Origin: Candidatus Xenobia bacterium | GTDB taxonomy: Bacteria; Vulcanimicrobiota; Xenobia; Xenobiales; QWHO01 | Direction: 5' to 3' | Assembly (NCBI GenBank): GCA_045863235.1 | Contig: BTUM01000046.1 | Location: 1 to 63,355, forward strand | Length of the DNA: 63,355 nucleotides | Part shown: piece by piece, positions 7,368 to 63,105 of the stretch | How positions within the stretch are numbered: the stretch's first letter is position 1 | How the letters are laid out: each line of letters begins with the position of its first letter | Position numbers and translations under genes: made by a program | Notes under the pieces: model-generated | What the model saw: only the letters and a program-made list of their open reading frames with translations | What the model was told of the DNA's origin: nothing | Database searches by the model: none

Positions 7368-7524
7368 AAAGTCTCCAAAGGCGAGCGAGTCAGCCGCCAC
7401 CCGGGCAGCAAGCCCTTTTTTGCCACACGCAACAGCAGACTTCCTTCCCGTTGCGCAAGTCGCCCAGTTGGTAGCTTTGGCAGACCGGCAGGTGCTGGAA
7501 TGCTAACAGAGAAGCAGCCGGGCC

Positions 7525-37042: not shown

Positions 37043-37903
37043 GTGACCAGCGAGGTAATCCAGACCTGCACTCTTTGCGGGGGTCACCCCCTCAAAGAGA
37101 CCAGTCTCCCCAGCATTTTCGCTTGTCCTGATTGCACTGCCCTTCTGAATCACCGCAGCCATTCCCGCGCCGAGGAGGAGCAGATCTACCTGACCGAGTC
37201 CTTCGACACCGCTCTGGAATTGTCAAAGAACCAGGCAGAATGGTTCCGTCAAATCGTCAGCGAGGCGGCCATCGAGCCGGGCTACCTGGTTGACTTTGGC
37301 TGTGGGACCGGTGGATTTCTCTGGCAAGCCGAGCAAATTGGCTGGGAGGTGGCTGGACTTGAAATCAACCCTGAGAGCGCCCAGAAAGCCGGGGATCGAC
37401 TGGGACGACCGGTCTTCTCAGGCAGCTTCTATGATTACCCGGGCCCGACTCGGCCGGCAGACGTGGTAACCTTTTGGGATAGCCTGGACCACTTGCTCCA
37501 GCCGGACGAAGCTCTGTCACGAGCTCACTCATGGCTGCGAGCAGGCGGTGGCGTGGTCATCCGGGTGCGCAACGGGCCCTGGCACTACTGGGCGCGTCGC
37601 GTTCAGGGTGCACTTCGCAAGCTCGGGCTGCTCAGGTCGCGGCGTTACGTTGGGGTGATTCATCGCTACGGATTCACGCGCAAGAGCCTGGCCCGGTTGC
37701 TGGCCCAGGAGGGGTTCGGTGAGATTCGCTGGTATCCAGCCGACCTGACCGCAGGTGATCGCTACTTCTGGTTCCGCTCGATGACCTTGCGCCACCTACT
37801 GGTGCAGCTCTACTTCGGAGTCGCCGATTCGATCTACCGGCTCACCGGAGGCCGGTTCTACCCCTTTGCCTCGCTCCTCGTTTATGCCAAGAGGCGCGAA
37901 TGA
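37043..37903 (+). CDS. Class I SAM-dependent methyltransferase with N-terminal CxxC..CxxC
   Basis: CTLCG...CPDC, VDFGCGTG, GLEIN and DVVTFWDSLDH. Confidence 0.88.
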   Translation: MTSEVIQTCTLCGGHPLKETSLPSIFACPDCTALLNHRSHSRAEEEQIYLTESFDTALELSKNQAEWFRQIVSEAAIEPGYLVDFGCGTGGFLWQAEQIGWEVAGLEINPESAQKAGDRLGRPVFSGSFYDYPGPTRPADVVTFWDSLDHLLQPDEALSRAHSWLRAGGGVVIRVRNGPWHYWARRVQGALRKLGLLRSRRYVGVIHRYGFTRKSLARLLAQEGFGEIRWYPADLTAGDRYFWFRSMTLRHLLVQLYFGVADSIYRLTGGRFYPFASLLVYAKRRE

Positions 37904-39261
37904 AGGGGAATTCACAGGCCTGGCTGGCTCCGACAGCGCGGTCCAGAACCGGTCGGCTCGACCCGGCCTGGTTGATCACCCTGTTTGCCATCGCAATCGC
38001 GATCACTCCTGAATTCGAGTTTTTGGGAATCCCGAAAATCCGACTGACCGACTTGTTGCTCCCCGTGATTCTGGTCGTCAACATCGGGGCGCTCCGAAAC
38101 CAGCCCGCCAGGACGAAGAAAGCCAGCATCAGCCTCATCTTGATCATTGCGACCGGCCTGATCATGCAAAATCTCGCCGCCCTGCTTGCCTTTGGAGGAG
38201 CCGGTTTGTTTCCTGGGCTGTATTATCTTGGCAAGAGAGTGGCGCTCTTCCTGATCCTCTACCTCGGCTATACCGCAGTGAATGATGTCCAGTCCTGGAA
38301 TCGGGTCGTCCGCGCCCTGGTTTTTACCACCCCGCTGTTGAATCTGTCGGTCATCTGGGAACTGTCGACCAAGATCGCCCAGGGGGGCGTGCACGCGACG
38401 GGGGAGGGGATGCGGGCCTCCGGAATCATTGCCAACCAGCAGACCTCCACCGGCCTGTTCATCGTGATCTTGTTCTGTCTTGCCATCGGTATGTGGGGAG
38501 CCTATCTCGACCCGGCCTGGAGATTTGGGGTCTTGATCGCCTTCTCGTCAGGGTGCCTGGCGCTGCTGGCGACTGGGAGCCGGGGCCCGATGGCCTCGGC
38601 GGTTCTGGCGATCGTTTTGCTGGCGGCCATGAATCCTCGCCGCGGGCTCGGACTGGCCATCTTTCTGGGCTCAATCGGGGCGATCTCCTGGGTCGTAACG
38701 CCGGACGCGCTGAGGGACCGACTCGGGGGAATCGTCCCTGAAACCCGTGCAACCCTGGCGGGCCTCGCCGACCCGGAGCTGATGCCCGAGTGGGGAGGCT
38801 CATCCATCGCCGACCGCGCCATTACGGCCCACCAGGCGCTCGTATACTACATCCCCAAAGCCGGTCTGATGGGCCTGGGCGCTGGCTATCGTCCTCTGGG
38901 GGCGTGGGACAACTTCTGGCTGACCGAGTGCGTCTATCACGGCAAGGTCGGCTTGCTCGTCTTTCTGACGCTTTTTCTGGCAGCGCTCGGTCTGCTCATT
39001 CGCGAAATCCGCGCCGCCCGAGACCCCGCCGAGAAGGGCGCTGCCCAGGGCGTCACTGCGGCCTTGCTCGTGATGGCGGCAAGCGGGATTCACGCGGACT
39101 CGTTCTACCTGATCCGTCCCATGGAAGCCCTGATGCTCTTGCTTGGCCTTGTAGCAGCTCGCAGTCGAATTCGCCAGAGCTCCGGCGAATTCGCCGTTTC
39201 GGGTCCTCACAGTGCTTCCTCTCGATCAGGGCGAGGAAACGAGGCGCGGCGCTGGTCGTAA
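37900..39261 (+). CDS. O-antigen polymerase/ligase (Wzy_C) family membrane protein
   Basis: About 11 TMs, RASGIIANQ, ATGSRG, a periplasmic loop with SIADR and GLGAG..DNFWL. Confidence 0.8.
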   Translation: MKGNSQAWLAPTARSRTGRLDPAWLITLFAIAIAITPEFEFLGIPKIRLTDLLLPVILVVNIGALRNQPARTKKASISLILIIATGLIMQNLAALLAFGGAGLFPGLYYLGKRVALFLILYLGYTAVNDVQSWNRVVRALVFTTPLLNLSVIWELSTKIAQGGVHATGEGMRASGIIANQQTSTGLFIVILFCLAIGMWGAYLDPAWRFGVLIAFSSGCLALLATGSRGPMASAVLAIVLLAAMNPRRGLGLAIFLGSIGAISWVVTPDALRDRLGGIVPETRATLAGLADPELMPEWGGSSIADRAITAHQALVYYIPKAGLMGLGAGYRPLGAWDNFWLTECVYHGKVGLLVFLTLFLAALGLLIREIRAARDPAEKGAAQGVTAALLVMAASGIHADSFYLIRPMEALMLLLGLVAARSRIRQSSGEFAVSGPHSASSRSGRGNEARRWS

Positions 39262-40598: not shown

Positions 40599-42638
40599 AT
40601 GCGCTCAAGAACGGATCAAACACGCCAGCCGGCCCCCCGATCGCAAGCTCTGCGGCTCGCGTTGCTGATCGTGCTGGCCTGCCTGGTAGGGCGCGTCGGA
40701 TTCGAGCTGGCCTACGATATCCACGATGGCGGGCGCCGGGCCGATCGCTGGTTCACCCTCACCGGTCCCCTGCTCGAGGCCTGGCGGACATCCCCCAATG
40801 CTGAGCTGCGTGCCTATGCCAGGCAAGCCCTTTCGCGTCAGCCCTATCCCAGGTCGTTGCAGTGGCTCCTCGAAGAATTGTCTACCAACCCCGAGGAGCA
40901 GTGCCAGCTCACTCGAGAAGACTGGCTCAGATACCGGCTCGACGAGCCGGGCAGCCAGCAAGCAGCCCTGCGGGCGGCACTGACCGGGGCGGTCGAGCCC
41001 GGCAGCTTCTGCTATAGCTTTCTTGCCCAGTTCAGTCAGCAGTTCCCTGCCGATTCCTGGGTCTGGCCGGAGATCGTCAAGCGAGCCGAGCAACCTGACG
41101 GGGAGGCGCTCCGGGCGCTCTTACCTTACCGTCTGCCGGACGAGCCCGTCATGGGCTCGCCCGAGTTCCGCGCAGCCGTGGCCACGGTCAATCGAGGAGG
41201 GGAAGCCGGCCCCCCCCTGGCCACGCTCACCAGACAAGAGCATGAGCACTTCCTGCGCTGGGTGGCTGTCCACCGACCAGAGCGTCTGCCAGCGCTCTTT
41301 TCGAGCGCAACCGGTCGCTGCAAGGCCATGGCGGCGATATTGCTGCTCGGGCACGAAGAAAGCCCGGTTCAGGTTCGTCCCTGGCTCGAGCAGCAGGCCA
41401 ACCGAGAGCTGTCAGCTCTGGCAGGTTACCAGTTGAGCCGCGGGCTGCTGGCCGAACTGGCCAGAGCCCTGCCCGAGAGTCGGTTCGCACGGGGGTGCAG
41501 CGATTACCTCACTTTGCGAGGCGGGGGCGACTTCAACGAGGGCTCGGACCGCCTGGACCTGCCAACCCGCAGGCGCCTGATTCAGAGCGCAGGCCGCGAC
41601 GAGAAGTGCTGGCGCAACTGGCTGGCCTGCTACCCCGGCCACCCCCAGGCAGACGAGGCTACCTACTGGCTGGCCCGAAGCCTGGAGTGGCAGGGCAAGC
41701 GCAAGCAGGCCTTTGCACTGGTGATGCGCCAGCTGGTGACTCCGGTTGGCGACGCCAGCAATCAGGACGATTTTCGCTCCCGATTGCTCTGGATGCTCGA
41801 CGTGGGGCTCACGGCCGGTGAGCTGGCCGACTTCGTGGGCAAGAATCCCCGCTCGCCGCTGACTCCGCTGGCCAGCTACGCCCTCTCGGTGCGGGCTGCG
41901 CGTCAGCATCAGTATGCTCGAGCCCTGAACCTGTCTCAGCGACTGTCGCTGGACAGAGCCTACCGGCTGGCCTTCGGAGCCGACTGGCGACCCTCTTTCA
42001 AAGAGGTCGAGCTTCGAAGCCTCGCGCTCAGCCTGAGCCGCCAGCGTCAGCATTGGCAGTCCATGCTGGGCGCCCGGCGTGAGCAGCTGGCCTCCCGGTG
42101 GAGCCGGGAGGACGGTTGGCAACTGGGCTACCTGTTTCTCTACTCAGGCGATCGCAAGGAAGCAATGGCCAGCGGAGACAACTACGTTGACAGCCTGGCC
42201 GTGCTCCCCTGCGGCCGGCCCGACGCCGAGCTGATTCGCAGGCATTATCAACAGGCTAGCAGCCAGGCCGTTGCTCTGGCGCTACTGCGGAAACTGCCCC
42301 AGAACGAGCACGTGATGTTTACGCAAATCCGGCTCCTGCACGAGCAGAGGAGGCGCGGTCAGCACGAGTCGCTGGCCATGGCCCCGCTGCAGGGACTGCC
42401 CGACCCGGAAGGCGAGCCTTATTACGCCTTCCAGATCGAGTGTTTGACGCGTCAACTCGAGGAGGAGCATCCCGAAAGCCACTATTGCGATGACGCCTTG
42501 ATGCTCTGCTACCAGGCCAGCTCCAATCGGGCCTTTCTCGACGAGATTCGTGTTTTCTATCCGGACGGCGATCAGGTGTTGCTGTTGCCGGAAGAATCGG
42601 CCCAGGTGCGCGCCGAGCGTCAGCTCTCAGAGCTTTAG
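40599..42638 (+). CDS. Membrane-anchored alpha-helical hypothetical protein with TPR-like motifs
   Basis: N-terminal TM. YPGHPQADEATYWLA and HPESHYCDDAL resemble TPR motifs. Has its own promoter and SD. Confidence 0.7.
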   Translation: MRSRTDQTRQPAPRSQALRLALLIVLACLVGRVGFELAYDIHDGGRRADRWFTLTGPLLEAWRTSPNAELRAYARQALSRQPYPRSLQWLLEELSTNPEEQCQLTREDWLRYRLDEPGSQQAALRAALTGAVEPGSFCYSFLAQFSQQFPADSWVWPEIVKRAEQPDGEALRALLPYRLPDEPVMGSPEFRAAVATVNRGGEAGPPLATLTRQEHEHFLRWVAVHRPERLPALFSSATGRCKAMAAILLLGHEESPVQVRPWLEQQANRELSALAGYQLSRGLLAELARALPESRFARGCSDYLTLRGGGDFNEGSDRLDLPTRRRLIQSAGRDEKCWRNWLACYPGHPQADEATYWLARSLEWQGKRKQAFALVMRQLVTPVGDASNQDDFRSRLLWMLDVGLTAGELADFVGKNPRSPLTPLASYALSVRAARQHQYARALNLSQRLSLDRAYRLAFGADWRPSFKEVELRSLALSLSRQRQHWQSMLGARREQLASRWSREDGWQLGYLFLYSGDRKEAMASGDNYVDSLAVLPCGRPDAELIRRHYQQASSQAVALALLRKLPQNEHVMFTQIRLLHEQRRRGQHESLAMAPLQGLPDPEGEPYYAFQIECLTRQLEEEHPESHYCDDALMLCYQASSNRAFLDEIRVFYPDGDQVLLLPEESAQVRAERQLSEL

Positions 42639-43441
42639 AGCTTTCGCGCCACGATCTCCGTCAGCACGGGCGAGTAGAACAGGGCCAGCGGGTCGGCCGC
42701 TCGCAAGCGCCAATCATGCTCGAAGGCGTCCTGCTCGGCAGGGGTGAGCAGGCCCCGCTCCACCAGCAGTGGCACATAGTTGAAGAAGAACCCCTCGGGC
42801 CACTGCCAGAACTCGGTCTTTGGGCCGCCAGCGCGCACCACCGGCTCGAGGTGCTCCACCCTGAGTCCCGAGTCTTCCAGCATGGCCGGCAGGCGACAGG
42901 CGATGTCGGGGTCGCCGCCGCGCTGGCGGAAGCTGTGGGCCACGGCCTCCACCACGCGCTCGAAGGCGCGGCTGCGGGGGGCCAGGCGCATGGCCTCGTA
43001 GTTGGCATACTCCTGAATAACGAAAGCGCCGCCCGGCTTGAGGGCGCGGGCCACGGCGGCCACCACCTTCTCGGGCTCAGGCACGAAGCACATCACCCAG
43101 CGCTCGAAAGCCCCGTCCAGGCTGGCCGCATCCAGCTCGAGCCGCTGGGCGTCCCCCACCCAGGCCTCGACGCGGGACTGCTCGGCCAACCGGGGCTGGG
43201 CCTGCAGATGCTCGATGTAGCGCTCCGAGGCGTCCACGGCCAGCACCTCGCCGCTGCTGGTCGCCAGGCGCGCAAGGTCGAGCGTGACGTAGCCCGGGCC
43301 GCAGCCCACGTCGAGCAACCGCTGGCCCTGGCCCAAGCCGGCCCGCTCGAAAAGAGCCAGAGCGCGGGCGCGCCAGACCTGAGCTTGAAAGCCGAGCCGC
43401 TGCAGCTCGGCGTCGTGGGTTCCGAGAACGTAGGTGGACAT
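42635..43441 (-). CDS. Class I SAM-dependent methyltransferase
   Basis: YVLG...ELQRL, LDVGCGPG, AVD, GDA and LKPGG. ATG 43441 is preferred. Confidence 0.9.
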   Translation of the reverse strand: MSTYVLGTHDAELQRLGFQAQVWRARALALFERAGLGQGQRLLDVGCGPGYVTLDLARLATSSGEVLAVDASERYIEHLQAQPRLAEQSRVEAWVGDAQRLELDAASLDGAFERWVMCFVPEPEKVVAAVARALKPGGAFVIQEYANYEAMRLAPRSRAFERVVEAVAHSFRQRGGDPDIACRLPAMLEDSGLRVEHLEPVVRAGGPKTEFWQWPEGFFFNYVPLLVERGLLTPAEQDAFEHDWRLRAADPLALFYSPVLTEIVARKL

Positions 43442-43576
43442 GGTATCTGGCTTTCGTCGGGGGAGCGGGGCGGCCTGCCGTTTGGGGCATCGCGCGGCAC
43501 TTTCGAGGGGCGCGAAACTCACCGTGAGAAGAGAGCCTCCCAGGAAGGATGCAGCCGGACACGGAAAACTCTACTC

Positions 43577-44158
43577 ATGAGCCTGTTGCACGTACGGACC
43601 CGGCCCATCACGGTCGAAGAGTTCAACCTGATGGCCGAAAAAGGCATCCTGGCGCCAGACGAGCGGGTGGAGCTAATCGAAGGAGCCATCGTCCCCTTGA
43701 GTCCTCAGAACAAGCCGCACAGCGATGCCATCAGTTGGACGAACAACCTCCTGGTTGAGCTCTTCGGCAAGACTCATCTCGTCCGCGTCCAGCTGCCCCT
43801 GGACCTGAGCCCCTACTCCGAGCCTGAGCCAGACTTTGCTGTCGTCCTCAAGGAGTGCCTGGCGAAGGTCAAGCGTCATCCCACCGGTGCCGACCTCATC
43901 ATCGAGGTGGCCCAGACGTCGCTTGCCTACGACCGCTATGAGAAGGCCAGCCTTTATGCGCGCTTCGGCATTCCCGACTACTGGGTGCTGAACACGGTCG
44001 ACGGCTGCCTGGAGGTGCACCGGGCCCCCAAAGTGGACGCGGCCGCCCCCTTCGGCTACAGCTACGCCGAGCGGCAGGTCTATCTGCCCGATCAGACCGT
44101 GGCGCCCTGCGCCCTTCCCCCGCATCCTATTCAGGTGAGCAAACTGACCGGTCCCTGA
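43577..44158 (+). CDS. Uma2 (DUF820) family endonuclease-like protein
   Basis: ITVEEF..M, RVELIEG, SEPEPD, LIIEVA, DRYEKASLYA.GIPDYWV. The long N-terminal extension in the ORF track is antisense shadow. Confidence 0.92.
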   Translation: MSLLHVRTRPITVEEFNLMAEKGILAPDERVELIEGAIVPLSPQNKPHSDAISWTNNLLVELFGKTHLVRVQLPLDLSPYSEPEPDFAVVLKECLAKVKRHPTGADLIIEVAQTSLAYDRYEKASLYARFGIPDYWVLNTVDGCLEVHRAPKVDAAAPFGYSYAERQVYLPDQTVAPCALPPHPIQVSKLTGP

Positions 44159-45294
44159 GTGGACGCCAACTCGGGCGCTCGAGGGTCGCTCGGCAGGCCG
44201 GGATTGAGGATCACTCCGCTGAGCGTCCAGAACAGGCAAGCGACCTGGGGCACGACGAGCACATCGGCACCCACTCCGCCACCCAGGATCACCAGCCAGG
44301 CCGCAGTACAGAACTGCTTGAGACTGTTCCGAGGGGCTCGGAGACCGGCTCGAAGCACGGCCACGATCACCGCGGCGAAGCTCAAGAACCCGGGCCATCC
44401 GGTCTCGTAGGCGATCTTGGCGAACTGGACGTCGGCCAACCCCATACGCCCTGCCCCCCTTCCCCAGGGTGCCTTCACCAGGCTCTCTCCAGCTCTCTGG
44501 AGGGTCTGCAGCCGGCCGCCTGAGGTTTGCATGACGTGCTGAAAGCGGTACTGGTCGCGATAAGTTCCCACCTGAAAAGACAGGGCGAACAGCAACGGGA
44601 GCAGCACCAGAGCAACCCACCATCCCCGTCGGGCGAAGAGAAAGAGAAGAGCCAACGCCAGACCGACCCAGGCACTGCGGGAGAATCCGAAGAGGAAGCA
44701 AACAATGGGCAGGATGGCTGCCCAGCGCCACCGCCCCAGGAGCTTGACCAGGAGGAGTGCCTGGGCGGCGGCGAGCATGGCGGAGTAGTTGTCGTTCAAG
44801 AGAGTGCCTGCCAACCGCCAGCCTCGAGGGTAGACGGGTGTGGAGTAAGGAAACGTCAGGATCTGCTCAATAAGACCGCTGGCAGGAGCTCGCTGACAGT
44901 CATTCACGAATCGAAACCAGCAATAAGACGCCAGCGAGTAGAGGCAGGCCAGCAGGCCGACCCAGCACCAGATCCTCAAGACCCGTTCGATAGCATCCGA
45001 CCTGAGAGCTACGCCGACCAGGCAACAAACCAGGTAGGGCAGCAGCAAGCGGGCCGACTCGAAAGCATCGCTCGCGCCCACCAGGGCGATCGCGTTCACC
45101 AGTCCAAAGACCAGCACCGGCGCCAGAGCCTTCAGCATCGGCAGAGTCATCCGGGGCATGATTGCCAGCAGCAGGAAGACCAGAAGGCCGTCGTCCAGAA
45201 CCCCGAGCGCAGGCCAGCCGAGCACCAGGAACTCATGCCAGATGTGCTCGGTCAGCAGCAACCCGAGGCCGACCGCTGCCAGGTCAGGCCGCAT
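44131..45294 (-). CDS. O-antigen ligase (Wzy_C) family membrane protein
   Basis: Polytopic membrane protein with RLAGTLLNDN, FSRSAW, SGGRL and PWGRGAG. Its start overlaps the nucleotidyltransferase stop. Confidence 0.72.
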   Translation of the reverse strand: MRPDLAAVGLGLLLTEHIWHEFLVLGWPALGVLDDGLLVFLLLAIMPRMTLPMLKALAPVLVFGLVNAIALVGASDAFESARLLLPYLVCCLVGVALRSDAIERVLRIWCWVGLLACLYSLASYCWFRFVNDCQRAPASGLIEQILTFPYSTPVYPRGWRLAGTLLNDNYSAMLAAAQALLLVKLLGRWRWAAILPIVCFLFGFSRSAWVGLALALLFLFARRGWWVALVLLPLLFALSFQVGTYRDQYRFQHVMQTSGGRLQTLQRAGESLVKAPWGRGAGRMGLADVQFAKIAYETGWPGFLSFAAVIVAVLRAGLRAPRNSLKQFCTAAWLVILGGGVGADVLVVPQVACLFWTLSGVILNPGLPSDPRAPELASTQGPVSLLT

Positions 45295-46291
45295 CGCCCC
45301 GGTTGCGGCGGGGGTTGGTCACAAAGCGCCAGAACCTGCGCCAAGCAGCGGCAAGCCTGAGCCGCGGACCGCCCGCACTGACCACCTCGTCCCCCAGGAA
45401 GCCATACTCGACGAGGTAGCGAAGACGGGCCGAGAGTCCGGGCAGGGAAGCGGCCAGGAAGAGCTCTCCCCAGATCGGACCGGGACGGCGCCTGGCGGCG
45501 ACGCGCAGAAACATTCTCTCAGACCAGGCCAGGGGTGGAAGCTGCACGAGCGGGGCTGAGCAGGGGAAGAGCTCAGTTACGAGGTGGGCGCAAAAGAGAA
45601 CCGGTCGAGAGTTGAGGGGGATTCTCGCGGGCGGGCAGCAGCGCAAGGCCAGAGCCAGGTCCACCAGCCAGATCAGGCGGCAACAGGAGTGTTTCAGGGC
45701 GTGCAGCGACAGGTGCAGCAACTGATGCTCCTCAGAAAGAAGGCGAAGGCCCGGTCGCCAGGGCCGGCTGTCAGCCCACAAGGCGCCGGTGGGAGGCCCG
45801 AGAAGGCGGCGGCTGGGGATACGGCGGGTGTCGAGAAGCTCTGTATGCAAGTCGACCTGCGGCCGATCAGGGCCAAAGCTCTCCAGCAAGCTCTGAACCC
45901 GTTGGAGGTCCCGGGAGCCAACCAACAAGTCCAGGTCGCCCATGGGCCTCAGCAGCGGGTCGACATAAGCCGTGGGAATCAAGGCCGCCCCTTTGAGCGC
46001 AATGACCTCGAGGTCTTGCTGCTCAAGACGAGAGCCCAAACGCTCGAGAAAGGCCATCTGCCACAGGCCGCGTCCCCAGTATCCGGCCTGTCGTTGGCGA
46101 CGCGCCGGGTCGCCAGGAAGCATGGCCGCGATGATTCCCAGGGTTCCCTCCTGTTCGGCCAGCTCGAGCAGGCCGGGACAGGTCGGATCCGAGCCGAGCG
46201 CAGGAGCGCCGGCGAGCCAGCGAGCGACCAGTAACAGGTGCAGGGCGCGGGGGGACACCCGGGCTGGTTCGCCCTCCCACACAGGATTCAT
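45284..46291 (-). CDS. Nucleotidyltransferase family protein (NTP_transf_5 type, as in paeninodin/pseudomycoidin clusters)
   Basis: VIALKGAAL, RPMGDLDLLV, VDLH, HALKH and LIWLVDL. Start uncertain (ATG 46291 or GTG 46258). Confidence 0.85.
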   Translation of the reverse strand: MNPVWEGEPARVSPRALHLLLVARWLAGAPALGSDPTCPGLLELAEQEGTLGIIAAMLPGDPARRQRQAGYWGRGLWQMAFLERLGSRLEQQDLEVIALKGAALIPTAYVDPLLRPMGDLDLLVGSRDLQRVQSLLESFGPDRPQVDLHTELLDTRRIPSRRLLGPPTGALWADSRPWRPGLRLLSEEHQLLHLSLHALKHSCCRLIWLVDLALALRCCPPARIPLNSRPVLFCAHLVTELFPCSAPLVQLPPLAWSERMFLRVAARRRPGPIWGELFLAASLPGLSARLRYLVEYGFLGDEVVSAGGPRLRLAAAWRRFWRFVTNPRRNRGDAA

Positions 46292-46317
46292 CCACAATCG
46301 GTGGAAACGGCTGCCAC

Positions 46318-48012
46318 GTGTCCTTGAGGCTGGTCTTGCGTCTTGCCCGAGCGGTGTCTCGAGAACGACCGGGTCTGGTGGCAACCAGTCTCTTGCTCAG
46401 CCTGGCTACGGCGCTCAGCGGAGGGCTCGGCATCCTGCTTCTGGTCCCTCTACTCAGCCTGGTGGGGATCGGGCAGCCCGGTTCGGAAACCCTTGCCTGG
46501 CTCGGCCGCCTGGAGCGGCAGACGGGCGTCACGCCTGACCTTGCGGTGATCCTGATCCTCTTTCTGGTGGCCCTGACAGCCCAGGCTTGGCTCCAGAGGG
46601 CCCAGAGCCTGACGACCTACGAGCTCTCCGTCCAGTTTCCGCTGAACATACAGCGTCAACTCTACGAAGCCATATCCGGCACCCGATGGACGCACTTTTT
46701 GAGCATGCGTAAGTCCAGTCTCCTGCAGGCTTGCACCTTTGAAGTGGAGCGACTGGAGCGCGCCGTTTACTGCCTGCACGCGCTCATCCTCGAAGGATGC
46801 CTCTGCTTGACCTACACGCTTGTGGCCCTGGCGCTGATGCCCGGGGTCACCCTGGTGTGGGTAGCCTGCGGCCTCCTCATGCTCGCGATGATGCGAAAGC
46901 GCATCCGGCGCGCCCGCCACATGGGCGAGCAGATCAGTGAGGATACGACCCGGATCTACCAGACGATATCCGACCACCTGGACGCCTTCCAGGTTGCTCG
47001 GGCCTACCAGGCCCAAGAACGACACGTCAGTCGGTTCCTGGAGGACATGGAGAGCTATTACGCGACGTTGAGGCAGGCCAACCGCAACTATCTCGACTCG
47101 AAGTTTACCTTCCGGGCAGCCTCGCTCCTGGCCCTGTGCCTGGTCTGCTACGCTGCCGTCCGCTGGGTCGAGGCCTCACCCGCTACCGTCGTACTCTCGA
47201 TCTACGTCTTCTCGCGCCTGGTTCCCAACTTGTCGAGTCTCGAGCAGCTCCTTCAGAGCTTTCTGCATGCCGCTCCGGCCTACGACACCCTGAAAGCCAC
47301 CATTAAACGCTGTCAGGAGGAGTCGGACAGGGAGCCGAGCGGAGAAGCTCCCGCCCTGCCCTTTGAACGAGAGATCCGCCTCGAGGGAGTATGTTTTTCC
47401 TACCCGGGCACAGAGCGTCTGCAAATCGAGGACCTGAGCCTGTCGATCGAGTCGGGCCGAATGACGGCGTTGGTAGGCGCGAGCGGCAGTGGGAAAAGCA
47501 CGACCGTCGATCTGATCCTGGGCCTGCTCACGCCCTTGCGAGGGAAAATTCTGGTCGACGGGAGGGAGCTGACCCCCGAGCTTCTGCCTGCCTGGCGCCG
47601 GACGGTTGCCTATGTGCCACAGGACATCTTCCTGTTTCACGCCAGCATTCGCGACAACTTGCTGTGGGCCCGGCCTGAAGCGACCGAGTCAGAGCTGTGG
47701 GAGGCGCTCGGTCGCGTGCAAGCCGATGGAATGGTAAGGGAGATGCCGGCGGGAATCGACACGTTGGTAGGTGACCGGGGCAGTCGCCTGTCCGGAGGAC
47801 AGGCTCAAAGACTGGCGCTGGCCCGGGCTCTTGTGCGCAGGCCCCGCATCCTCATACTGGACGAGGCGACCAGCGCCCTGGACGAGGCCTCCGAGAGCCA
47901 GATCCTGGCGATGCTTCGGACCGACCTGACGATCCTGATGATCACCCATCGAGCATCAGCCGCAAGCCGAGCCGACCAGGTGCTCTGCCTCGAGTCGGGA
48001 CGCCGCGCGTAG
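46318..48012 (+). CDS. ABC transporter TMD+NBD, probable lasso peptide exporter
   Basis: GASGSGKST, YVPQD, LSGGQAQRLALARA, ILDEATSALD and ITHR. Immediately upstream of the lasso genes. Confidence 0.88.
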   Translation: MSLRLVLRLARAVSRERPGLVATSLLLSLATALSGGLGILLLVPLLSLVGIGQPGSETLAWLGRLERQTGVTPDLAVILILFLVALTAQAWLQRAQSLTTYELSVQFPLNIQRQLYEAISGTRWTHFLSMRKSSLLQACTFEVERLERAVYCLHALILEGCLCLTYTLVALALMPGVTLVWVACGLLMLAMMRKRIRRARHMGEQISEDTTRIYQTISDHLDAFQVARAYQAQERHVSRFLEDMESYYATLRQANRNYLDSKFTFRAASLLALCLVCYAAVRWVEASPATVVLSIYVFSRLVPNLSSLEQLLQSFLHAAPAYDTLKATIKRCQEESDREPSGEAPALPFEREIRLEGVCFSYPGTERLQIEDLSLSIESGRMTALVGASGSGKSTTVDLILGLLTPLRGKILVDGRELTPELLPAWRRTVAYVPQDIFLFHASIRDNLLWARPEATESELWEALGRVQADGMVREMPAGIDTLVGDRGSRLSGGQAQRLALARALVRRPRILILDEATSALDEASESQILAMLRTDLTILMITHRASAASRADQVLCLESGRRA

Positions 48013-48114
48013 AGCACTTAGGACATGGCGCGGCGTCGTTCAATAGATAGATGGAACACACTCCCTGTTCTGAATCTGAACAAATCAAGGACGGGAGGAT
48101 AGCACGAATATCGC

Positions 48115-48143
48115 TTGTCAGCCCCACCGGGATTGTTTAAGAT
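48115..48143 (+). promoter_or_regulatory. Sigma70-like promoter for the lasso maturation genes
   Basis: TTGTCA (48115-20), 17-nt spacer, TAAGAT (48138-43). Confidence 0.6.
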
Positions 48144-48178
48144 TGAATGGACGACAGGAACTGGGCCAGGTCTTATAC

Positions 48179-48454
48179 TTGGATTTTCGGAAGAGGGTCA
48201 TTGAATCAGAGGACGTGCTTGTGCGCGAGATCGACGGGCAAGCGATCCTGCTGAACCTTGAAACAGAAGCATATTTTGGACTCAACGAGCCGGGCACGCG
48301 AATGTGGGAGCTCCTGACGAGCTCACCATCCATTGATGATGCCTACCGGAAGCTGCTCGACGAGTTTGAGGTGGAGCCTGAGCGGCTGAAGGCCGACCTG
48401 GGGGAGCTGCTGGCCGGCTTGATCGGGCAAGGTCTCGTAGCGGTCGAAGGATGA
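48179..48454 (+). CDS. PqqD-family RiPP recognition element (lasso B1)
   Basis: REIDGQAILLNLETEAYFGLNEPGTRMWELL...LLDEFEV..ERLKADL..L...GL. TTG 48179 is preferred over 48143, which overlaps the -10 box. Confidence 0.93.
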   Translation: MDFRKRVIESEDVLVREIDGQAILLNLETEAYFGLNEPGTRMWELLTSSPSIDDAYRKLLDEFEVEPERLKADLGELLAGLIGQGLVAVEG

Positions 48455-48888
48455 GCCTGGTTCGGTACGCACAGCTCTGCTTGCTGCAGGTCGCGCTCTT
48501 CTTCATTGGCATGCGGCGAGTGATGGGCCTTCTGAGGAAGCTTCCTTCGCGTCGTTCGGCTGGCGGCCGGAACCGCGAGGAGCGGGCCGAGATGTTGGCC
48601 CGACAGATCGAGCGAACCGCGCGAGTCGGTCGGTTGCGAGACAGCTGCCTGCCTCGTTCCATCCTGTTATGGTGGCTGCTCAGACGCCAGGGCATCCTCA
48701 CCCGGCTGCGCCTGGGGGTCAAGGGCAATGGGAAGGCGGTTCGGGCTCACGCCTGGGTGGAGCTGCGGGGCCGCCCGCTCGGCGCCGACCGTGACCAGAG
48801 CTCGGGATTCTCAGCATTCCCGGGCTTGACTCCCGGGTTCCGGCGGAAGAGGGCTGCCTGGAGGCTGCCGGCGGACCAGACTGGATGA
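48451..48888 (+). CDS. Lasso peptide leader protease (B2, transglutaminase-like)
   Basis: SCLPRS (catalytic Cys), LRLGV and AHAWVE (His). ATGA-coupled to B1 and C. Confidence 0.93.
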   Translation: MSLVRYAQLCLLQVALFFIGMRRVMGLLRKLPSRRSAGGRNREERAEMLARQIERTARVGRLRDSCLPRSILLWWLLRRQGILTRLRLGVKGNGKAVRAHAWVELRGRPLGADRDQSSGFSAFPGLTPGFRRKRAAWRLPADQTG

Positions 48889-50759
48889 GCTCCATCGTCG
48901 GCCTGCTCTCGAACGAGACCTTCCCGGCAGCCCCGGCTCTCATTGAGAAGATGCTGGGCAGGCTGATCCACCGCGGCCACGACCGCTCTGACCTCTGGTG
49001 GCATGATCGCCTGGCCCTGGGCCACGCAGCGCTCTGGACCACGGCGGACTGTCCGCTCAGCCGTTACCCTTCGGTCGCTCCCGATGGTCTGGTCGTGGTC
49101 GCCGATGCGCGCCTGGACAACCTGGGCGAGTTGCGAGAGTCCCTTGGACTCCCGGGTGGGCGGCCGGAGGAGCTGATCCTTGCGGCCTACCGCCGCTGGG
49201 GTGACCGGTTTCCAGGCTACCTCCTGGGTGATTTCGCAATTGCTCTGTCGGATCCTCATCGGGGCCGACTGGTCTGCGCCCGTGATCCGTTTGGAGTACG
49301 TCCCCTGGTGTATCACTGGCGCCCGGGATTCTTTGCGCTGGCCTCGGAAATCAAGGCTCTGCTGGCGGTGCCCGGCCTACCCTGCCACGTCAACGAAGGC
49401 AGAATCGCGGACTTCCTGGTGCCTCTGTTAGAGGGCATCGACCAGACTACGACGTTCTACGAAGAGATCCACCGCCTGCCTCCCGCTCACACCCTGGTGG
49501 TGGATCCGGCCGGCATTCGCCTGCAGCGTTACTGGCGCCTCGACCCACAACGCGAGCTCCGGTTTGCCGATCCAAATGACTATGTCGAGGGCTTTCGCCA
49601 GGTCTTCGGAGAGGCCGTGCGCTGCCGACTGGCAGGCAGTCACCAAGCCGGATTGCTGCTCAGTGGAGGCATCGACTCAGCCGCTATCGCCGCCGTCGCA
49701 AGCGATACGGGCAGACCACTGCGAACCTACTCGGCGGTGGCAGGGGAGGATGAGGAGAGCTGCTGCATCCGGGAGATGATCGCCCACCTGCCGGGCCTGC
49801 AAGCTCGCACGATTTCGGTTCAGGAGGCCCACCTATTCCAGGGGAGCCCGGCTGAGATGCTGCGCGGGCTCGATGACCTCTTTGACACCGACCTGATGGC
49901 CGTTCCGGCCCTGCTCTACGCGGCCGCGCGCCTTGACGGCACCCGGGTCGTGCTCGATGGGGTCGATGGGGATATCGTCACTTCCCACGGCTCTTCGTAC
50001 CTGGCATATCTGGTCCGCCAGGGTCTCTGGACTCGGTTCGCCCGCGAGGCTGTTGGGCTCTCGAATTTCTGGAGAATGTCCCTGCCCGAGCTCGTCTTGA
50101 AGGCGGTCAGGCAGGCAATGGTCCCCAATTTCCTACGCCGGCTGAAACTGGAGTATGACCGGCGCTTCGGCGACCGGACCTTGATCAAAGACTCTTGCAT
50201 CAACCCGGCCTTTGCTCGAAGCGCTCGACTGTCCGCGCGACGAGCCCGGCAACGGGAGAATCAGGGTTATGAGATGGCGGAGAATCTCAGACTCGCCACT
50301 GCCCGCCTCCTGGAAGCTCCTTTCATCACCGTTGCTTTGGAGCGCTATGAGCGGGTGGCCTCTCGGCAAGGGATCAAGTCCTGTCATCCCTTCTTTGATC
50401 GACGGCTGGTGGAGTACTGCCTTGCCCTGCCCTGGGATCAGAAGATCAGCCATGGGACCTCGAAGGTGGTTCTTCGTCGAGCATTGGAGCGCGATCTACC
50501 CCGTACGGTTCGCGGGGGTCGACCTCGTCGGCATGTGGCTCCTGTTTTCTGGAGCCATCTGACCGCTCGAGCTCAAAGCCTGCTGACCTCTGCTCCCCCG
50601 CAGCACCTGGAGCGCTACCTTGACCCGGCCAGGCTTCGCGGAGATGCTTCCTACCAGTGGCAGGCTTGCACGCTCGCCACCTGGTTGGCCGAGACCAGGC
50701 AGGAGCGAGTAGAAGACTCTAGTATAATCCGAAGTTTAAGTAATGGAGGTGTCTCGTGA
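48885..50759 (+). CDS. Lasso peptide cyclase (asparagine-synthetase-like)
   Basis: AsnB fold (ARDPFGVRPL, ASEIKAL, PP-loop LSGGIDS, HPFFDRRL) with Ser in place of the catalytic Cys (MSSIVG). Flanked by B1/B2 and the precursor. Confidence 0.93.
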   Translation: MSSIVGLLSNETFPAAPALIEKMLGRLIHRGHDRSDLWWHDRLALGHAALWTTADCPLSRYPSVAPDGLVVVADARLDNLGELRESLGLPGGRPEELILAAYRRWGDRFPGYLLGDFAIALSDPHRGRLVCARDPFGVRPLVYHWRPGFFALASEIKALLAVPGLPCHVNEGRIADFLVPLLEGIDQTTTFYEEIHRLPPAHTLVVDPAGIRLQRYWRLDPQRELRFADPNDYVEGFRQVFGEAVRCRLAGSHQAGLLLSGGIDSAAIAAVASDTGRPLRTYSAVAGEDEESCCIREMIAHLPGLQARTISVQEAHLFQGSPAEMLRGLDDLFDTDLMAVPALLYAAARLDGTRVVLDGVDGDIVTSHGSSYLAYLVRQGLWTRFAREAVGLSNFWRMSLPELVLKAVRQAMVPNFLRRLKLEYDRRFGDRTLIKDSCINPAFARSARLSARRARQRENQGYEMAENLRLATARLLEAPFITVALERYERVASRQGIKSCHPFFDRRLVEYCLALPWDQKISHGTSKVVLRRALERDLPRTVRGGRPRRHVAPVFWSHLTARAQSLLTSAPPQHLERYLDPARLRGDASYQWQACTLATWLAETRQERVEDSSIIRSLSNGGVS

Positions 50760-50923
50760 GTGAGTTCAACAGGGAGCCGTCGGATGTCCGGGCTTCTTCT
50801 AAGAGGGGCTATGTCAAGCCCCAGTTGGTGGCCTACGGAAACGTAAGAGCCCTGACCACCGGGGGCTCGGGAGCTGAAACCGAAAACAAGGGCAAGGATC
50901 CGCAACTCGACAAGAAGCCGTGA
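50756..50923 (+). CDS. Lasso peptide precursor (55 aa; absent from the ORF track)
   Basis: GGAGGT SD, then GTG: MSEFNREPSDVRASSKRGYVKPQLVAYGNVRALTT|GGSGAETENKGKDPQLDKKP. Shows the YxxPxL, G and T(-2) leader motifs, with Gly1 and Glu8 in the core. GTGA overlaps with both neighbours. Confidence 0.92.
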   Translation: MSEFNREPSDVRASSKRGYVKPQLVAYGNVRALTTGGSGAETENKGKDPQLDKKP

Positions 50924-51837
50924 GCTCCGTGCAACCCAGATGCTATCGGTTCTGCGATTGGATGGTGGTTTCCGAATTGCCGCTCTGCAGCTCACTCCTG
51001 GCTGAGTGCCCCCCCCTCGATGGAGACTGCGAGATCCTGGCGCGGGCATCACCCCCAGCACCGGAACGATACACTCATCGTCAGCAATGGCTCGGGCCGG
51101 ACGGGACCGTGTCACTCGAGCATTACTGGTCCGGGGAGCGGTCCACCTACCAACTCGTGCGATTTCCCGGCCAGGCCGATTGCCTGATCGACGGGCGACG
51201 CGTCCAGGTCACCCCGGCGGATGGCCTCCAGCCCGGTGAACTGGATCGCCTCCTCGTGTCCCAACTGTTACCCAGGCTGATGAGCTCGAGGGGCCGTCTT
51301 GTTCTCCACGCAAGTGCCGTCACCGCCGCTGGAGGAGCGATCGGATTCCTGGGTCCATCCGGAGCCGGCAAGTCCACCCTGTCCGCCTATCTCGCCAGCA
51401 CAGGAAAACCCATCCTGGCGGACGATTGCCTGGTCATCATCCCGGAAGCAAACGGGGGAGCTCGGGCTCTTCCGAACTACTCCGGCTCGAGGCTGTCTCC
51501 TGACACCGTTGCCTGGCTCTACCCAACCTCACGCTCTCACAAAGGGCAGAAGAACCGGGTCCACCTCCCCGACTGCGCGTCCCAATCGGCCCTGAAGGCT
51601 CTCTTTCTCATTGAGTCTTCGTCAAGCGTCACCTGCGAGCCCCTTGAGGCTCGGGAACGAGTGGTGCAGCTGCTGCGAAACTCCTTTCAACTCGGCTCCA
51701 GTCAGCGGAGCGAGCGGGCCCGCCTCCTGGAGCAGTTGGTGACGCTGGCCCGCTCGGTGCCCTGTTATCGTCTGGCCTATCCGCGTGAATATGAGAGACT
51801 GGGCGAGGTGGCGCGTCTTCTGGAGGGCTATGTATAG
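50920..51837 (+). CDS. HPr-kinase-like lasso peptide kinase (PadK/PsmK-like)
   Basis: VLHASAV, Walker A GPSGAGKST and ILADD. Start overlaps the precursor stop. Confidence 0.85.
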   Translation: MSSVQPRCYRFCDWMVVSELPLCSSLLAECPPLDGDCEILARASPPAPERYTHRQQWLGPDGTVSLEHYWSGERSTYQLVRFPGQADCLIDGRRVQVTPADGLQPGELDRLLVSQLLPRLMSSRGRLVLHASAVTAAGGAIGFLGPSGAGKSTLSAYLASTGKPILADDCLVIIPEANGGARALPNYSGSRLSPDTVAWLYPTSRSHKGQKNRVHLPDCASQSALKALFLIESSSSVTCEPLEARERVVQLLRNSFQLGSSQRSERARLLEQLVTLARSVPCYRLAYPREYERLGEVARLLEGYV

Positions 51838-52975
51838 CGTCTTCTTCTATGGTCGCATGATTGCCGACAGAGTCCGCATGGATGCCTATTGCGAGGCGTT
51901 GAGGCGTGCGGTTCAGCCTGGCTCGACCGTGCTCGATATCGGCACCGGAACCGGGATCATGGCCCTTCTCGCGTGTCGCTTCGGAGCCCGTCACGTCTAT
52001 GCGGTGGAGCCTTCGGAAGCCATTCATGTGGCCCGCAAGATGGCAGCCGACAATGGGTTTCTCGAGCAGATCACCTTTCTTCAAGATCTGTCGACTCGAG
52101 TCAACCTGCCTGAGAAAGTCGACGTCATCGTCTCGGACGTTCGCGGAAACCTTCCCCTGCTTGGGCAGAGCCTGGGCTCTTTGATGGATGCTCGCGACCG
52201 GCACCTCGCCAGGGAGGGACAAATGATCCCCCAGCGCGATCTCATGCAGGTAGCCCTGGTGGGCGCTTCATCTCTTTACTCGCGCTACGAGGGGGTCTGC
52301 GGCACCAACCTCTACGGCCTGGACCTCTCCGGCTCCTGGCCCTACGTGGCCAGCTCGATCTATCGTGAGGAGCTGCGTCCCGAGCACCTCTTGCTCGAGC
52401 CCCGCGTCTGGTGTGAGCTCGATTATCGCACTTTGTCCACTCCTCACGCTCGAGGCCAGGCCGAATGGACTTTGCCTTCGGGCAGCAGAATCTACGGGCT
52501 CGGTCTGTGGTTTGATGCTCAGCTGCTGGACGGAGTTGGCTTCTCCAATGCCCCACTGTATTCACCTCTGATCTACGGGCGCACCTTCTTGCCCCTCCGA
52601 GAACCGCTGGATGCCCAAGCTGGGGAGCAGGTCGTGGTGAGCCTCAGGGCGCAGCTCGTGGCAGAAGGCTATGTCTGGTCGTGGCAGGTCGAGGTCCTTT
52701 CCCCAGGCTCGACCCGGGCGCGATTGCGGTCCAAACAATCGACCTTCGAGGGGATTCCCATGGCTCCAGGCACTCTCGCTCGGCACGACCACCGCTTTGT
52801 GCCCAGCCTCAACGAAGCGGGGCGGGTGGAGCTGGCGATCCTCGAGTTGATGGACGGCCAGCGCCCCCTGGAGCAGATTGCCGGCGAGCTCACCCGGCGT
52901 TTCCCCACCCGTTACCCCACGATTACCCGCGCGATGGCGGAGGTGGGAGCTCTGGCGGTGAAATTCGGCTCCTGA
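51830..52975 (+). CDS. PRMT-fold class I SAM methyltransferase
   Basis: MIADRVRMDAY, LDIGTGTG, VYAVE, EKVDVIVSD and LWFDAQL. GGAGGG SD; overlaps the kinase stop. Confidence 0.85.
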   Translation: MYSVFFYGRMIADRVRMDAYCEALRRAVQPGSTVLDIGTGTGIMALLACRFGARHVYAVEPSEAIHVARKMAADNGFLEQITFLQDLSTRVNLPEKVDVIVSDVRGNLPLLGQSLGSLMDARDRHLAREGQMIPQRDLMQVALVGASSLYSRYEGVCGTNLYGLDLSGSWPYVASSIYREELRPEHLLLEPRVWCELDYRTLSTPHARGQAEWTLPSGSRIYGLGLWFDAQLLDGVGFSNAPLYSPLIYGRTFLPLREPLDAQAGEQVVVSLRAQLVAEGYVWSWQVEVLSPGSTRARLRSKQSTFEGIPMAPGTLARHDHRFVPSLNEAGRVELAILELMDGQRPLEQIAGELTRRFPTRYPTITRAMAEVGALAVKFGS

Positions 52976-53102
52976 TCTCGAGAATCGGCGACGTGTGAGA
53001 AGTTACGCCTGCTGTTACGTCGACAGTTGTCTCCTCTGGCAGCCGCCTATGGAACAAGATGGCAGCCGACAAGAGCGCTTGCCGTGAGCCTCGGCACCAG
53101 CC

Positions 53103-54110
53103 TTGCAAGCTGGGCTGAGTTCGGAGGACTCCCTCCCGGGCAAGCGGAATGGCTATCCCATCTTGGCGCGGAGCATGCGAGGCCGAACCGAACTCCCAGA
53201 GCGCCAGCTCAACCAGCTCACCCGAGATGAGCTGAAGAAGGCTGGCCGTGCCGACTTTTGGCGGGAGCTCAGCCCGGACAGCCGCCTGAGCGACGAGCCC
53301 TTCGCCGAACTCGGTGAGCTCTATCAGGTCTCGACGCAGGAGGTCAAAAGACTCCGAGCGCAGCTTCTCAGCGAAGGGTATTTCCAGTCCACCCCGCTGA
53401 TCCCGAAGGAAGAAACCGAAAAGCTCGCCTCCATGGTATCCACGGTCGTCGCTCGCGGTTTCCCTCCGCTCTTCTCCATGGTTTACGATGACTTCTGGCG
53501 TTTGATCGCCCGACTCGAATACCTCATCGTTCCCCTGGTGGGCTCCGAATTCAAGATCGTCCCGGACTTCTGGGTCTGGCGAGTGGATGGCTCCAGTGGG
53601 AAGGGGGGCTGGGTCGCGCACCGCGACCACGAGTGCGATCACCCCTTTGATGAGCAAGGACGCCCCAATCTCGTAACGGCCTGGATCGCCCTGACCGAAG
53701 CAACCCTGGAAAACGCTTGCATGTACGTCCTACCCACCTGCCACGACGAATATCTTCCCGACCAGGTCGCCAACTACAGCGTCCCACCCGGGGCCGAGCA
53801 CCACATCCGTGCCCTGCCCGCGCAGCCAGGTTCCGTGCTGGGCTGGAACCAGCACCTGCTGCACTGGGGCTCGGCCTATCGCTCAGGCCCTCCCCGGGTG
53901 AGCCTGGGAATCTACCTCCAACGCGCCAACGCCGGACCGGCCCTGACGGCTGCGCCCGCCTTCCGCCCCAAGGGCAGGCTGGGGTTTGACGAGAGGCTGG
54001 GCATGGTGGGGAGAATGCTGGTCAAGTACAGGCACTATGGTTTCTCCCAGGAGCTGGAAAGCTTCAGCCGTCAGGCCTGGGGGTTCTGGCAGGCTCTGAG
54101 GCTTCGCTGA
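53103..54110 (+). CDS. Fe(II)/2-oxoglutarate dioxygenase, PhyH family
   Basis: WVAHRD (HxD), TAWIALTEATLENACMYVLP, LLHWGS and PRVSL. Start uncertain (alternative ATG 53175). Confidence 0.82.
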   Translation: MQAGLSSEDSLPGKRNGYPILARSMRGRTELPERQLNQLTRDELKKAGRADFWRELSPDSRLSDEPFAELGELYQVSTQEVKRLRAQLLSEGYFQSTPLIPKEETEKLASMVSTVVARGFPPLFSMVYDDFWRLIARLEYLIVPLVGSEFKIVPDFWVWRVDGSSGKGGWVAHRDHECDHPFDEQGRPNLVTAWIALTEATLENACMYVLPTCHDEYLPDQVANYSVPPGAEHHIRALPAQPGSVLGWNQHLLHWGSAYRSGPPRVSLGIYLQRANAGPALTAAPAFRPKGRLGFDERLGMVGRMLVKYRHYGFSQELESFSRQAWGFWQALRLR

Positions 54111-59015: not shown

Positions 59016-59119
59016 GGGGATTGCCCCCCGACGGGACGAGGCTCGAACGGCTCGTCCGGTTGAAATGAACGGAGACTACTTCCGTACTGCCCCTCTTGGC
59101 GACGGAGGCTGAGAATCCT

Positions 59120-63046: not shown

Positions 63047-63105
63047 CTTCCTTGCAGGATAAGCGTTTGGGCTGAAGGGGGGCTGAAAGCTGGGTTTGCG
63101 GCGGA

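Follow-up and report, generated by a model that had tools for sequence, protein, structure and literature searches.

The stretch of DNA analyzed here (hereafter the window) comprises 63,355 nucleotides (nt), a whole contig (BTUM01000046.1) of the 8.36-Mb assembly of a Candidatus Xenobia bacterium (GCA_045863235.1). It carries a lasso-peptide gene cluster that stands head-to-head with two genes, one for a nucleotidyltransferase (NT) and one for a Wzy_C-like membrane protein, at the edge of a long polysaccharide locus. The features, with the evidence for each, are as follows (C, A, K and MT denote the cyclase, precursor, kinase and methyltransferase; ORF, open reading frame; aa, amino acids).

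97-40410, strand not specified: polysaccharide locus (Pfam and NCBIfam)
44131-45294, minus strand: Wzy_C-like membrane protein, 387 aa (Pfam Wzy_C, predicted fold)
45284-46384, minus strand: NTP_transf_5 nucleotidyltransferase, longest ORF, likely start ATG 46291 (Pfam PF14907)
46318-48012, plus strand: ABC exporter, lasso D type (ABC_membrane and ABC_tran)
48143-48454, plus strand: B1, PqqD-type leader-binding protein, RRE (PqqD)
48451-48888, plus strand: B2, transglutaminase-like leader peptidase (Transglut_core3, NF033537)
48885-50759, plus strand: C, lasso macrolactam cyclase (Asn_synthase, NF033535)
50756-50923, plus strand: precursor peptide, 55 codons (lasso_leader_L3, NF033521)
50920-51837, plus strand: HprK-like peptide kinase (weak HprK_rel_A match, motifs)
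51830-52975, plus strand: PRMT-fold methyltransferase, ORF open from 51785 (PrmA, weak PRMT_C)
53103-54110, plus strand: PhyH-type Fe/2-oxoglutarate dioxygenase (PhyH)

The original prediction, made from the letters of the window and its ORFs, had named the ABC, B1, B2, cyclase, precursor, kinase, PRMT-like methyltransferase and PhyH genes, and every one of them was recovered with the same boundaries by ORF calls, Pfam and NCBIfam. The translational coupling that it proposed from B1 to the methyltransferase is likewise present, with overlaps of 4 nt at each of the junctions B1/B2, B2/C, C/A and A/K and of 8 nt between kinase and methyltransferase (given a methyltransferase start at ATG 51830). 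On the opposite strand, the head-to-head nucleotidyltransferase, placed by that prediction less than 60 nt away, has its ATG 26 nt from the GTG of the ABC gene, and its stop overlaps the start of the Wzy_C-like gene by 11 nt.

Measured against the cut-offs of the Pfam and NCBIfam models, B1 matches PqqD at 57.2 bits (above the Pfam cut-off) and lasso_PqqD_Bac at 47.4 bits (under the cut-off of 80), and B2 matches Transglut_core3 at 74.7 bits and lasso_biosyn_B2 (NF033537) at 66.2 bits, over the cut-off of 33. The cyclase reaches 433 bits with NF033535, under its "exception" cut-off of 525, and 121 bits with Asn_synthase, and the precursor passes lasso_leader_L3 (NF033521) with 22.2 bits against a cut-off of 19. 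The leader of this precursor ends in ...YVKPQLVAYGNVRALTT and the predicted core is GGSGAETENKGKDPQLDKKP, whose translation predicts a ring between G1 and E8. Its segments YVKPQL...ALTT/GGSGAETE show what characterizes class II split-B precursors, i.e., a YxxPxL leader, Thr(-2), an N-terminal Gly and Asp/Glu at core positions 7-9, and, as expected of that class, B1, B2 and C are encoded together. The core contains four Lys and no Arg and ends in ...QLDKKP, without a C-terminal Ser; no second precursor ORF of lasso type was found in the cluster or in the genome. Judged by its sequence, 46318-54110 is a complete lasso-peptide gene cluster, with core genes and a precursor that pass or approach the family models.

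Searches with the methyltransferase recovered at least 488 loci in species-representative genomes, and the best 80 of these (L088-L167) form the family to which we compare the window; gene calls in these relatives are ORF and hidden Markov model (HMM) calls made here, and many loci are cut by contig ends. The family crosses phyla, with members in Acidobacteriota, Cyanobacteria, Chloroflexota, Gemmatimonadota, Trueperaceae, Gammaproteobacteria, Myxococcota and others. By HMM counts, 61 of the 80 loci have a cyclase, 62 a kinase, 59 a B1, 47 a nucleotidyltransferase, 45 an ABC protein and 36 a B2. Full 10-kb flanks are available for 32 loci, 27 of them with a lasso core, and all of these 27 carry the kinase, 22 the nucleotidyltransferase and 19 the ABC protein. 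The window shares the defining feature of the family in that C, A and K are accompanied by a PRMT-fold methyltransferase of ~380 aa, and this protein is 39-48% identical to those of the 80 loci. The usual gene order is B1-B2-C-A-K-MT-(ABC-NT), and L088 has exactly the order of the window (NT-ABC-B1-B2-C-K-MT). Family precursors have a leader in common, and cores similar to that of the window, all very much alike in their GGSG...E portion, occur in L150, L112, L103 and L096, the window core being close to GGSGAMAENKGNKGITRHP (L150) and GGSGARPELASQSKNKQRP (L112). Most other family cores end in a K-T motif, whereas the window core ends in Pro and lacks it. In one of these relatives (L150:4667-5300) the precursor gene is present twice in tandem, the two peptides agreeing in the ring and differing in the tail. 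The lasso operon of the window is thus a member of a widespread family for which no characterized product was found.

The C, K, B1, B2 and ABC proteins of the window score far better against the 80 family loci than against its own class. The best cyclase homologues (L112, L102 and L150) reach 384-391 bits compared with 170 bits for the best in-class match, and the ABC protein scores 385 bits against L119 compared with 208 bits in class. As the best homologues lie in cross-phylum loci and not in the window's own class, horizontal acquisition is suggested, and on these sequence comparisons the cluster probably arrived by horizontal transfer and settled at the border of the polysaccharide locus. 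Lasso B2, the methyltransferase and a close cyclase were not found in four same-genus genomes, two of which are only 64-65% complete. This single, isolated copy, together with a promoter and terminator scan that gave no signal above shuffled expectation, is what a cryptic or decaying cluster with no mature product in its host might look like. However, all ten reading frames (ORF table, Pfam) are open, tightly coupled and endowed with conserved motifs, and the precursor is intact and similar to those of relatives, so that we regard a cryptic or decaying state as very improbable.

The kinase matches HprK_rel_A only weakly (35.8 bits versus a cut-off of 200) and thus falls outside the kinase of the HPr-rel-A system (TIGR04352/TIGR04353) as that model defines it. 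Its motifs LHASAV and GPSGAGKST (P-loop) are nevertheless intact and conserved, and the proteins most similar to it are kinases from the cross-phylum lasso loci. Two kinds of precedent bear on its target. Paeninodin-type kinases phosphorylate a C-terminal Ser (PMC9266682), and BsfK of Bradymonas sediminis phosphorylates the ring residue Ser3 with the assistance of B1 (PMC10368454). Given that the window precursor has no C-terminal Ser, that position 3 is Ser or Thr in all seven cores of the GGSG-type subfamily (the window Ser3 included), that the kinase motifs are intact and that BsfK offers a precedent, core Ser3 is the predicted target by analogy with BsfK.

The comparison extends to whole clusters. 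The bsf cluster of B. sediminis FA350 (bsfA, B1, B2, C, D, K, N; PMC10368454) is, like that of the window, a split-B system that also encodes an ABC exporter, an HprK-like kinase and, by prediction, a nucleotidyltransferase; the window differs from it in having Thr(-2) and not the Ile(-2) of bsf (Ile/Val at leader -2 in bsf-type precursors) and in adding a PRMT-fold methyltransferase and PhyH. Paeninodin and pseudomycoidin clusters (PadeK, ThcoK, PsmK, PsmN; PMC9266682, PMC8498205) share with the window an HprK-like kinase and NTP_transf_5 beside the lasso core and a YxxPxL leader but are of Firmicutes type, target a C-terminal Ser and have neither PRMT-fold methyltransferase nor PhyH.

The methyltransferase scores 45.4 bits with PrmA and weakly with PRMT_C (Pfam), and the profile of its family aligns over positions 4-273 with the structures of PRMT2, PRMT6 and PRMT1 (E 1e-42). 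More than 1151 homologues are found at E<=1e-10. Beyond the PRMT fold lies an extra C-terminal domain of ~100 aa, which we considered as an RRE and rejected, its similarity to PqqD being weak (E 0.0025 and 0.056). These residues (~290-381) are conserved across the family, with the consensus ...LNEDG...L.LM.G..SL.EIA....RFP..F... and a faint likeness to the PqqD/RRE helix-turn-helix. What we take to be the counterpart of the SEW...E "double-E" motif of arginine methyltransferases reads SDLRG in the window protein. Arginine would not be the target here because the core contains none, and lysine is our guess. As scaffolds, lasso peptides are prized, and the tailoring chemistries known for them are few; the hallmark enzyme of this large, many-phyla lasso family, none of whose products we found characterized, has the fold of eukaryotic arginine methyltransferases, and the window adds to it a PhyH dioxygenase and a precursor open to direct tests (Ser3, four Lys, no Arg).

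The dioxygenase itself matches PhyH at 43.9 bits. Its homologues (E 1e-21 to 3e-35) lie inside or against three of the 80 related clusters (L124 with two copies, L135 and L163) and it is thus a real but sporadic accessory gene of the cluster family. In L124 (14322-16261) the two PhyH genes stand in tandem between the ABC and nucleotidyltransferase genes, and a Solibacteraceae member of the same family (L130:11146-13891) has a different accessory tailoring set, in which the methyltransferase is followed directly by two genes for 2OG-Fe(II) oxygenases and one for a B12-binding radical SAM protein. The canucin cluster offers a likeness by description, as CanE (PMC9266682) is a B1-assisted Fe/2-oxoglutarate hydroxylase that tailors a lasso precursor, while the window enzyme belongs to the PhyH family. 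The original prediction had not recognized this gene combination from any characterized cluster, and none with a lasso core, kinase, PRMT-like methyltransferase and PhyH together was found in the literature. Nor was a paper found in which O-antigen ligases, PhyH or PRMT-like enzymes are connected with lasso clusters, most subscription journals being outside the coverage of that search.

To the left of the cluster, 97-40410 holds genes for glycosyltransferases, sugar-nucleotide enzymes, a chain-length determinant, a PglK-like ABC transporter, MBOAT and AT3 acyltransferases and WbqC, as well as a second Wzy_C-like gene of its own (37900-39261). By this gene content it is a genuine polysaccharide locus, and the adjoining glycan locus of the original prediction is therefore real. 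Three MBOAT acyltransferases (3883-5346, 15818-17224 and 17221-18606), a sulfotransferase (6549-7400) and an FkbH-like protein (8588-10444) are encoded there, and owing to these genes the sequence suggests a polymer that is heavily O-acylated and possibly sulfated.

The nucleotidyltransferase is the gene on which the relation between these two neighbors turns. It matches PF14907 at 84.1 bits and its translation contains KG...GDLDLLV, presumably a polymerase-beta-type motif. Of 44 genomes in the class, 22 have this domain (up to seven copies each), and the genome of the window holds only three or four NTP_transf_5 genes. We surveyed 58 nucleotidyltransferase loci with HMMs built here (53 fetched loci, L012, L013 and three regions of the window's own genome). 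Against the copies L058 and L059, both from the same-genus genome G046, the window enzyme reaches 188 and 137 bits, and against the best cluster-type copy 49 bits. In the tree, it forms a three-row clade with these two copies (support 98) within a 17-row clade (support 97), eight rows of which have a Wzy_C context, whereas 39 of the 47 cluster-type nucleotidyltransferases form a clade of their own (support 95) from which the window copy is excluded. In the window, then, a glycan-type nucleotidyltransferase stands in place of the family type. Most copies of its clade sit among glycosyltransferases, acyltransferases, chain-length determinants and flippases, and the loci L058, L059 and L064 are homologous to the polysaccharide locus of the window (GDP-mannose dehydratase 73%, GT4 56-58% and chain-length determinant 36% identity). 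These homologous loci hold both the two same-genus nucleotidyltransferase copies and the same-genus Wzy_C-like gene.

A Wzy_C-type gene occurs in 12 of the 58 nucleotidyltransferase-centered loci, compared with ~0.7 expected at a class density of ~0.8 per Mb; in the window's class, the two kinds of gene go together. The kinase and nucleotidyltransferase had been likened in the original prediction to those of paeninodin and pseudomycoidin clusters, of which the HprK-like kinase and the NTP_transf_5 family stand, while the C-terminal Ser acceptor is lacking and the nucleotidyltransferase is of the polysaccharide clade. The view that the nucleotidyltransferase is simply foreign to lasso biology was also entertained and is weakened by the regular presence of such enzymes in lasso loci. 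A trio of NTP_transf_5, HprK-like kinase and PqqD, often with an ABC protein, was seen in L015, L016, L017, L019, L020, L028, L032, L035, L039, L041, L052 and L059; no B2 or cyclase match was found in these class-relative loci, several of which lie inside polysaccharide loci. The PqqD protein of L059 passes TIGR04353, "HPr-rel-A system peptide chaperone" (46.4 versus 35), and a single ORF in L060 (8642-10678) joins radical SAM and NTP_transf_5 beside PqqD, HprK-like kinase and ABC genes, which looks like a different cassette resembling those for RiPPs (peptides made by the ribosome and then modified post-translationally).

The partner of the nucleotidyltransferase had been assigned to the Wzy_C/O-antigen-ligase family, and both domain and fold are found, albeit with a score of 26.2 bits against the Pfam Wzy_C cut-off of 31.7. 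It has ~9-10 hydrophobic helices. Only 27 representatives are related to it at E<=1e-3 (HMMER, 1.84 billion proteins), and 20 of 25 aligned members of this small, divergent subfamily match Wzy_C. A profile of this subfamily aligns with the membrane part of the class Wzy_C-TPR proteins (hhalign probability 98.2%), and its Atlas neighbors are Wzy_C clusters. An AlphaFold (AF2) model (pLDDT 87.5) finds the WaaL ligase (7tpg_B; TM 0.54, E 2.3e-4, Foldseek) as best solved match, followed by FtsW and RodA. Going by this model, the protein has a ligase/polymerase fold. With WaaL (PDB 7tpg) and the Wzy_C family it shares a polytopic membrane fold, conserved Arg residues and a G-x-G-P-G loop, and the subfamily as a whole keeps invariant Arg and Gly residues, that loop and an invariant D288. 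It differs from them, apart from the low Pfam score, in that a sequence search of solved structures with the protein or its profile gave no match, and in that the subfamily has a gap where the Wzy_C-TPR consensus has its His-bearing AHND segment; we take this loop His to be a catalytic residue of the ligases.

For the Wzy_C-like gene, a protein homology search returned only the query, the subfamily alignment found no locus among genome contigs, and among metagenome contigs it found one near-identical piece of 1.8 kb. With the subfamily profile, full-length members were seen in four of 401 sampled genomes of the phylum, all four in the window's class. Each of the four loci has a nucleotidyltransferase within ~2 kb, in three different arrangements, and B2 and C only in the window. 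A recurrent cassette of nucleotidyltransferase, FecR-like, PsbP-like and Wzy_C(-TPR) genes occurs in the polysaccharide loci L022, L049, L064, L059 and L021, and in L064 the TPR-fused gene is replaced by one of the TPR-less Wzy_C-like subfamily.

Given that the nucleotidyltransferase groups with same-genus polysaccharide-locus copies, and that the Wzy_C-like subfamily is found beside lasso genes only here, the pair most likely serves the glycan locus. We therefore favor, with moderate confidence, the explanation that two systems stand side by side, an acquired lasso cluster and a nucleotidyltransferase/Wzy_C-like pair (44131-46291) native to the polysaccharide locus of the genus. The chain envisaged by the original prediction, leading from the kinase through the nucleotidyltransferase and ligase to a glycan, was not supported, as the nucleotidyltransferase is not of the family type and the Wzy_C-like subfamily adjoins lasso genes in this one place. 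On the lasso side, B1 would bind the leader (YxxPxL...T-2), the kinase would phosphorylate core Ser3, the methyltransferase would methylate the precursor and PhyH would hydroxylate a side chain, B2 would cleave after ...ALTT, the cyclase would link Gly1 to Glu8 and the ABC protein would export the Ser3-phosphorylated, methylated and hydroxylated peptide. On the glycan side, the nucleotidyltransferase and the Wzy_C-like protein would act jointly on the glycan or on an acceptor of their own, as they would in relatives where no lasso genes were found.

Several observations weigh against so clean a separation. The nucleotidyltransferase, one of three or four copies in the genome, lies a mere 26 nt from the ABC gene, and chance adjacency is hard to credit. 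Family clusters usually include a nucleotidyltransferase and this one landed beside one, which suggests that a resident gene was co-opted. Within polysaccharide loci, too, nucleotidyltransferases are found in the company of HprK-like kinases and PqqD proteins, and the glycan-type nucleotidyltransferase/Wzy_C pair may therefore itself act on a peptide. Finally, five of the 80 related clusters (L130, L099, L155, L107 and L088) directly abut Wzy_C genes, all above the Pfam cut-off, where 1.0 would be expected in 1.24 Mb at the class density of 0.8 per Mb (P for at least five, 0.0035), and one of them, L088, repeats the layout of the window (Wzy_C, then NT-ABC-B1-B2-C-K-MT), with a fragmented Wzy_C gene head-to-head with the nucleotidyltransferase.

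The first of these points could be accommodated by a displacement of paralogues. A cluster without a nucleotidyltransferase of the family type, whether lost or never possessed, would use the resident glycan-type enzyme to place a hexose or nucleotide onto the phosphopeptide, as PsmN does, and the Wzy_C-like protein would be merely a co-translated glycan enzyme. The frequency of nucleotidyltransferases in complete family clusters (22 of 27) and near B2 loci in the class (within 10 kb of seven out of ten) favors this, as does the position of the window enzyme, which is that seen in L088 beside the ABC gene. Its motif, presumably of polymerase-beta type, looks intact. There is also a precedent, since PsmK and PsmN together yield a phosphoglycosylated peptide (PMC9266682, PMC8498205). 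However, the enzyme is distant from the cluster-type clade (the 49 bits given above), its closest relatives lie in loci without lasso genes in the fetched stretches, and the two closest cluster relatives that can be judged, L102 and L103, have no nucleotidyltransferase. Moreover, the window core lacks the C-terminal K-T motif of most family cores that come with a nucleotidyltransferase, the motif and the enzyme being linked by inference. On balance we consider displacement unlikely, though not negligible.

The Wzy_C adjacencies bear on a more far-reaching possibility. Four of the five Wzy_C-abutting clusters also have a chain-length/tyrosine-kinase gene and one has a Poly_export gene. The layouts vary: L130 has a chain-length gene, then Poly_export-Wzy_C-B1...; L099 has the nucleotidyltransferase, then the chain-length gene and Wzy_C; and L155 and L107 have Wzy_C, a chain-length gene and a CarboxypepD_reg gene, then the cluster. 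Counting L155 and L107 as one event raises P to 0.018, and at twice the density the two values become 0.05 and 0.14. We thus see a weak pattern of repeated docking of family clusters beside polysaccharide-export genes. In L088 (365-2735, Trueperaceae) the Wzy_C gene is split over three consecutive frames, with an IS4/5 transposase adjoining, and may be decaying or may contain assembly frame errors.

In view of such docking one may ask whether surface glycans are partners, or targets, of some RiPPs. One version, that of the original prediction, is a RiPP-glycan hybrid in which the nucleotidyltransferase and the Wzy_C-fold enzyme would couple the lasso peptide, once phosphorylated, to an undecaprenyl-linked glycan, or would have the two assembled and exported together, and the peptide would become a component of the envelope or matrix. 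The overlapping nucleotidyltransferase and Wzy_C-like genes head-to-head with the cluster, the WaaL ligase fold of the model and the five Wzy_C-abutting clusters with their chain-length and Poly_export partners speak in its favor. Against it, a broader Wzy_C HMM found no Wzy_C gene in 75 of the 80 related clusters, which goes a long way towards refuting the proposed ligase linkage, even with five cases where about one is expected. Within the class, eight of the nine other B2 loci have no Wzy_C; the exception, L024, recognized with this broader HMM, has Wzy_C-TPR neighbors but no cyclase match. In addition, the pair occurs without lasso genes in relatives, the subfamily lacks the AHND segment with its presumably catalytic His, and the polysaccharide locus has a Wzy_C-like gene of its own. 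Polysaccharide loci are, besides, common sites of gene insertion, which we also count against the hybrid, and all told we hold it to be improbable.

Hardly better are the prospects of a family-wide version, to which we assign an equally low probability. Here the lasso family as such would work with polysaccharide-export machinery, the nucleotidyltransferase passing the phosphorylated and methylated peptide to a Wzy_C-fold enzyme and its chain-length partner, so that peptide and surface glycan would become attached or be assembled together; the tightest version would be that of the window, with the glycan-type pair replacing the cluster's own nucleotidyltransferase. If a RiPP-glycan link of this kind were true, it would mean a new kind of envelope component, and if not, polysaccharide loci would be preferred landing sites for such clusters. 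We continue to prefer the reading of two adjacent systems.

Three further parts of the window deserve mention. Its right end (59096-63355) is DNA of 65-68% G+C in which long ORFs of the two strands overlap (1405 aa on the minus strand, 889 and 451 aa on the plus strand), and none of them has a Pfam match. A 679-aa protein encoded at 40599-42638 has an N-terminal hydrophobic helix and a faint TPR/YbgF match, with no Pfam family. Next to it, the ORF of a Uma2-family endonuclease (42716-44158; Pfam match confined to residues 301-440) runs on the strand opposite to the Wzy_C-like gene and reaches 28 nt into the 3' end of that gene. No homologues of these last two ORFs were found in the same-genus loci, and in the window they stand between the nucleotidyltransferase/Wzy_C-like pair and the rest of the polysaccharide locus.

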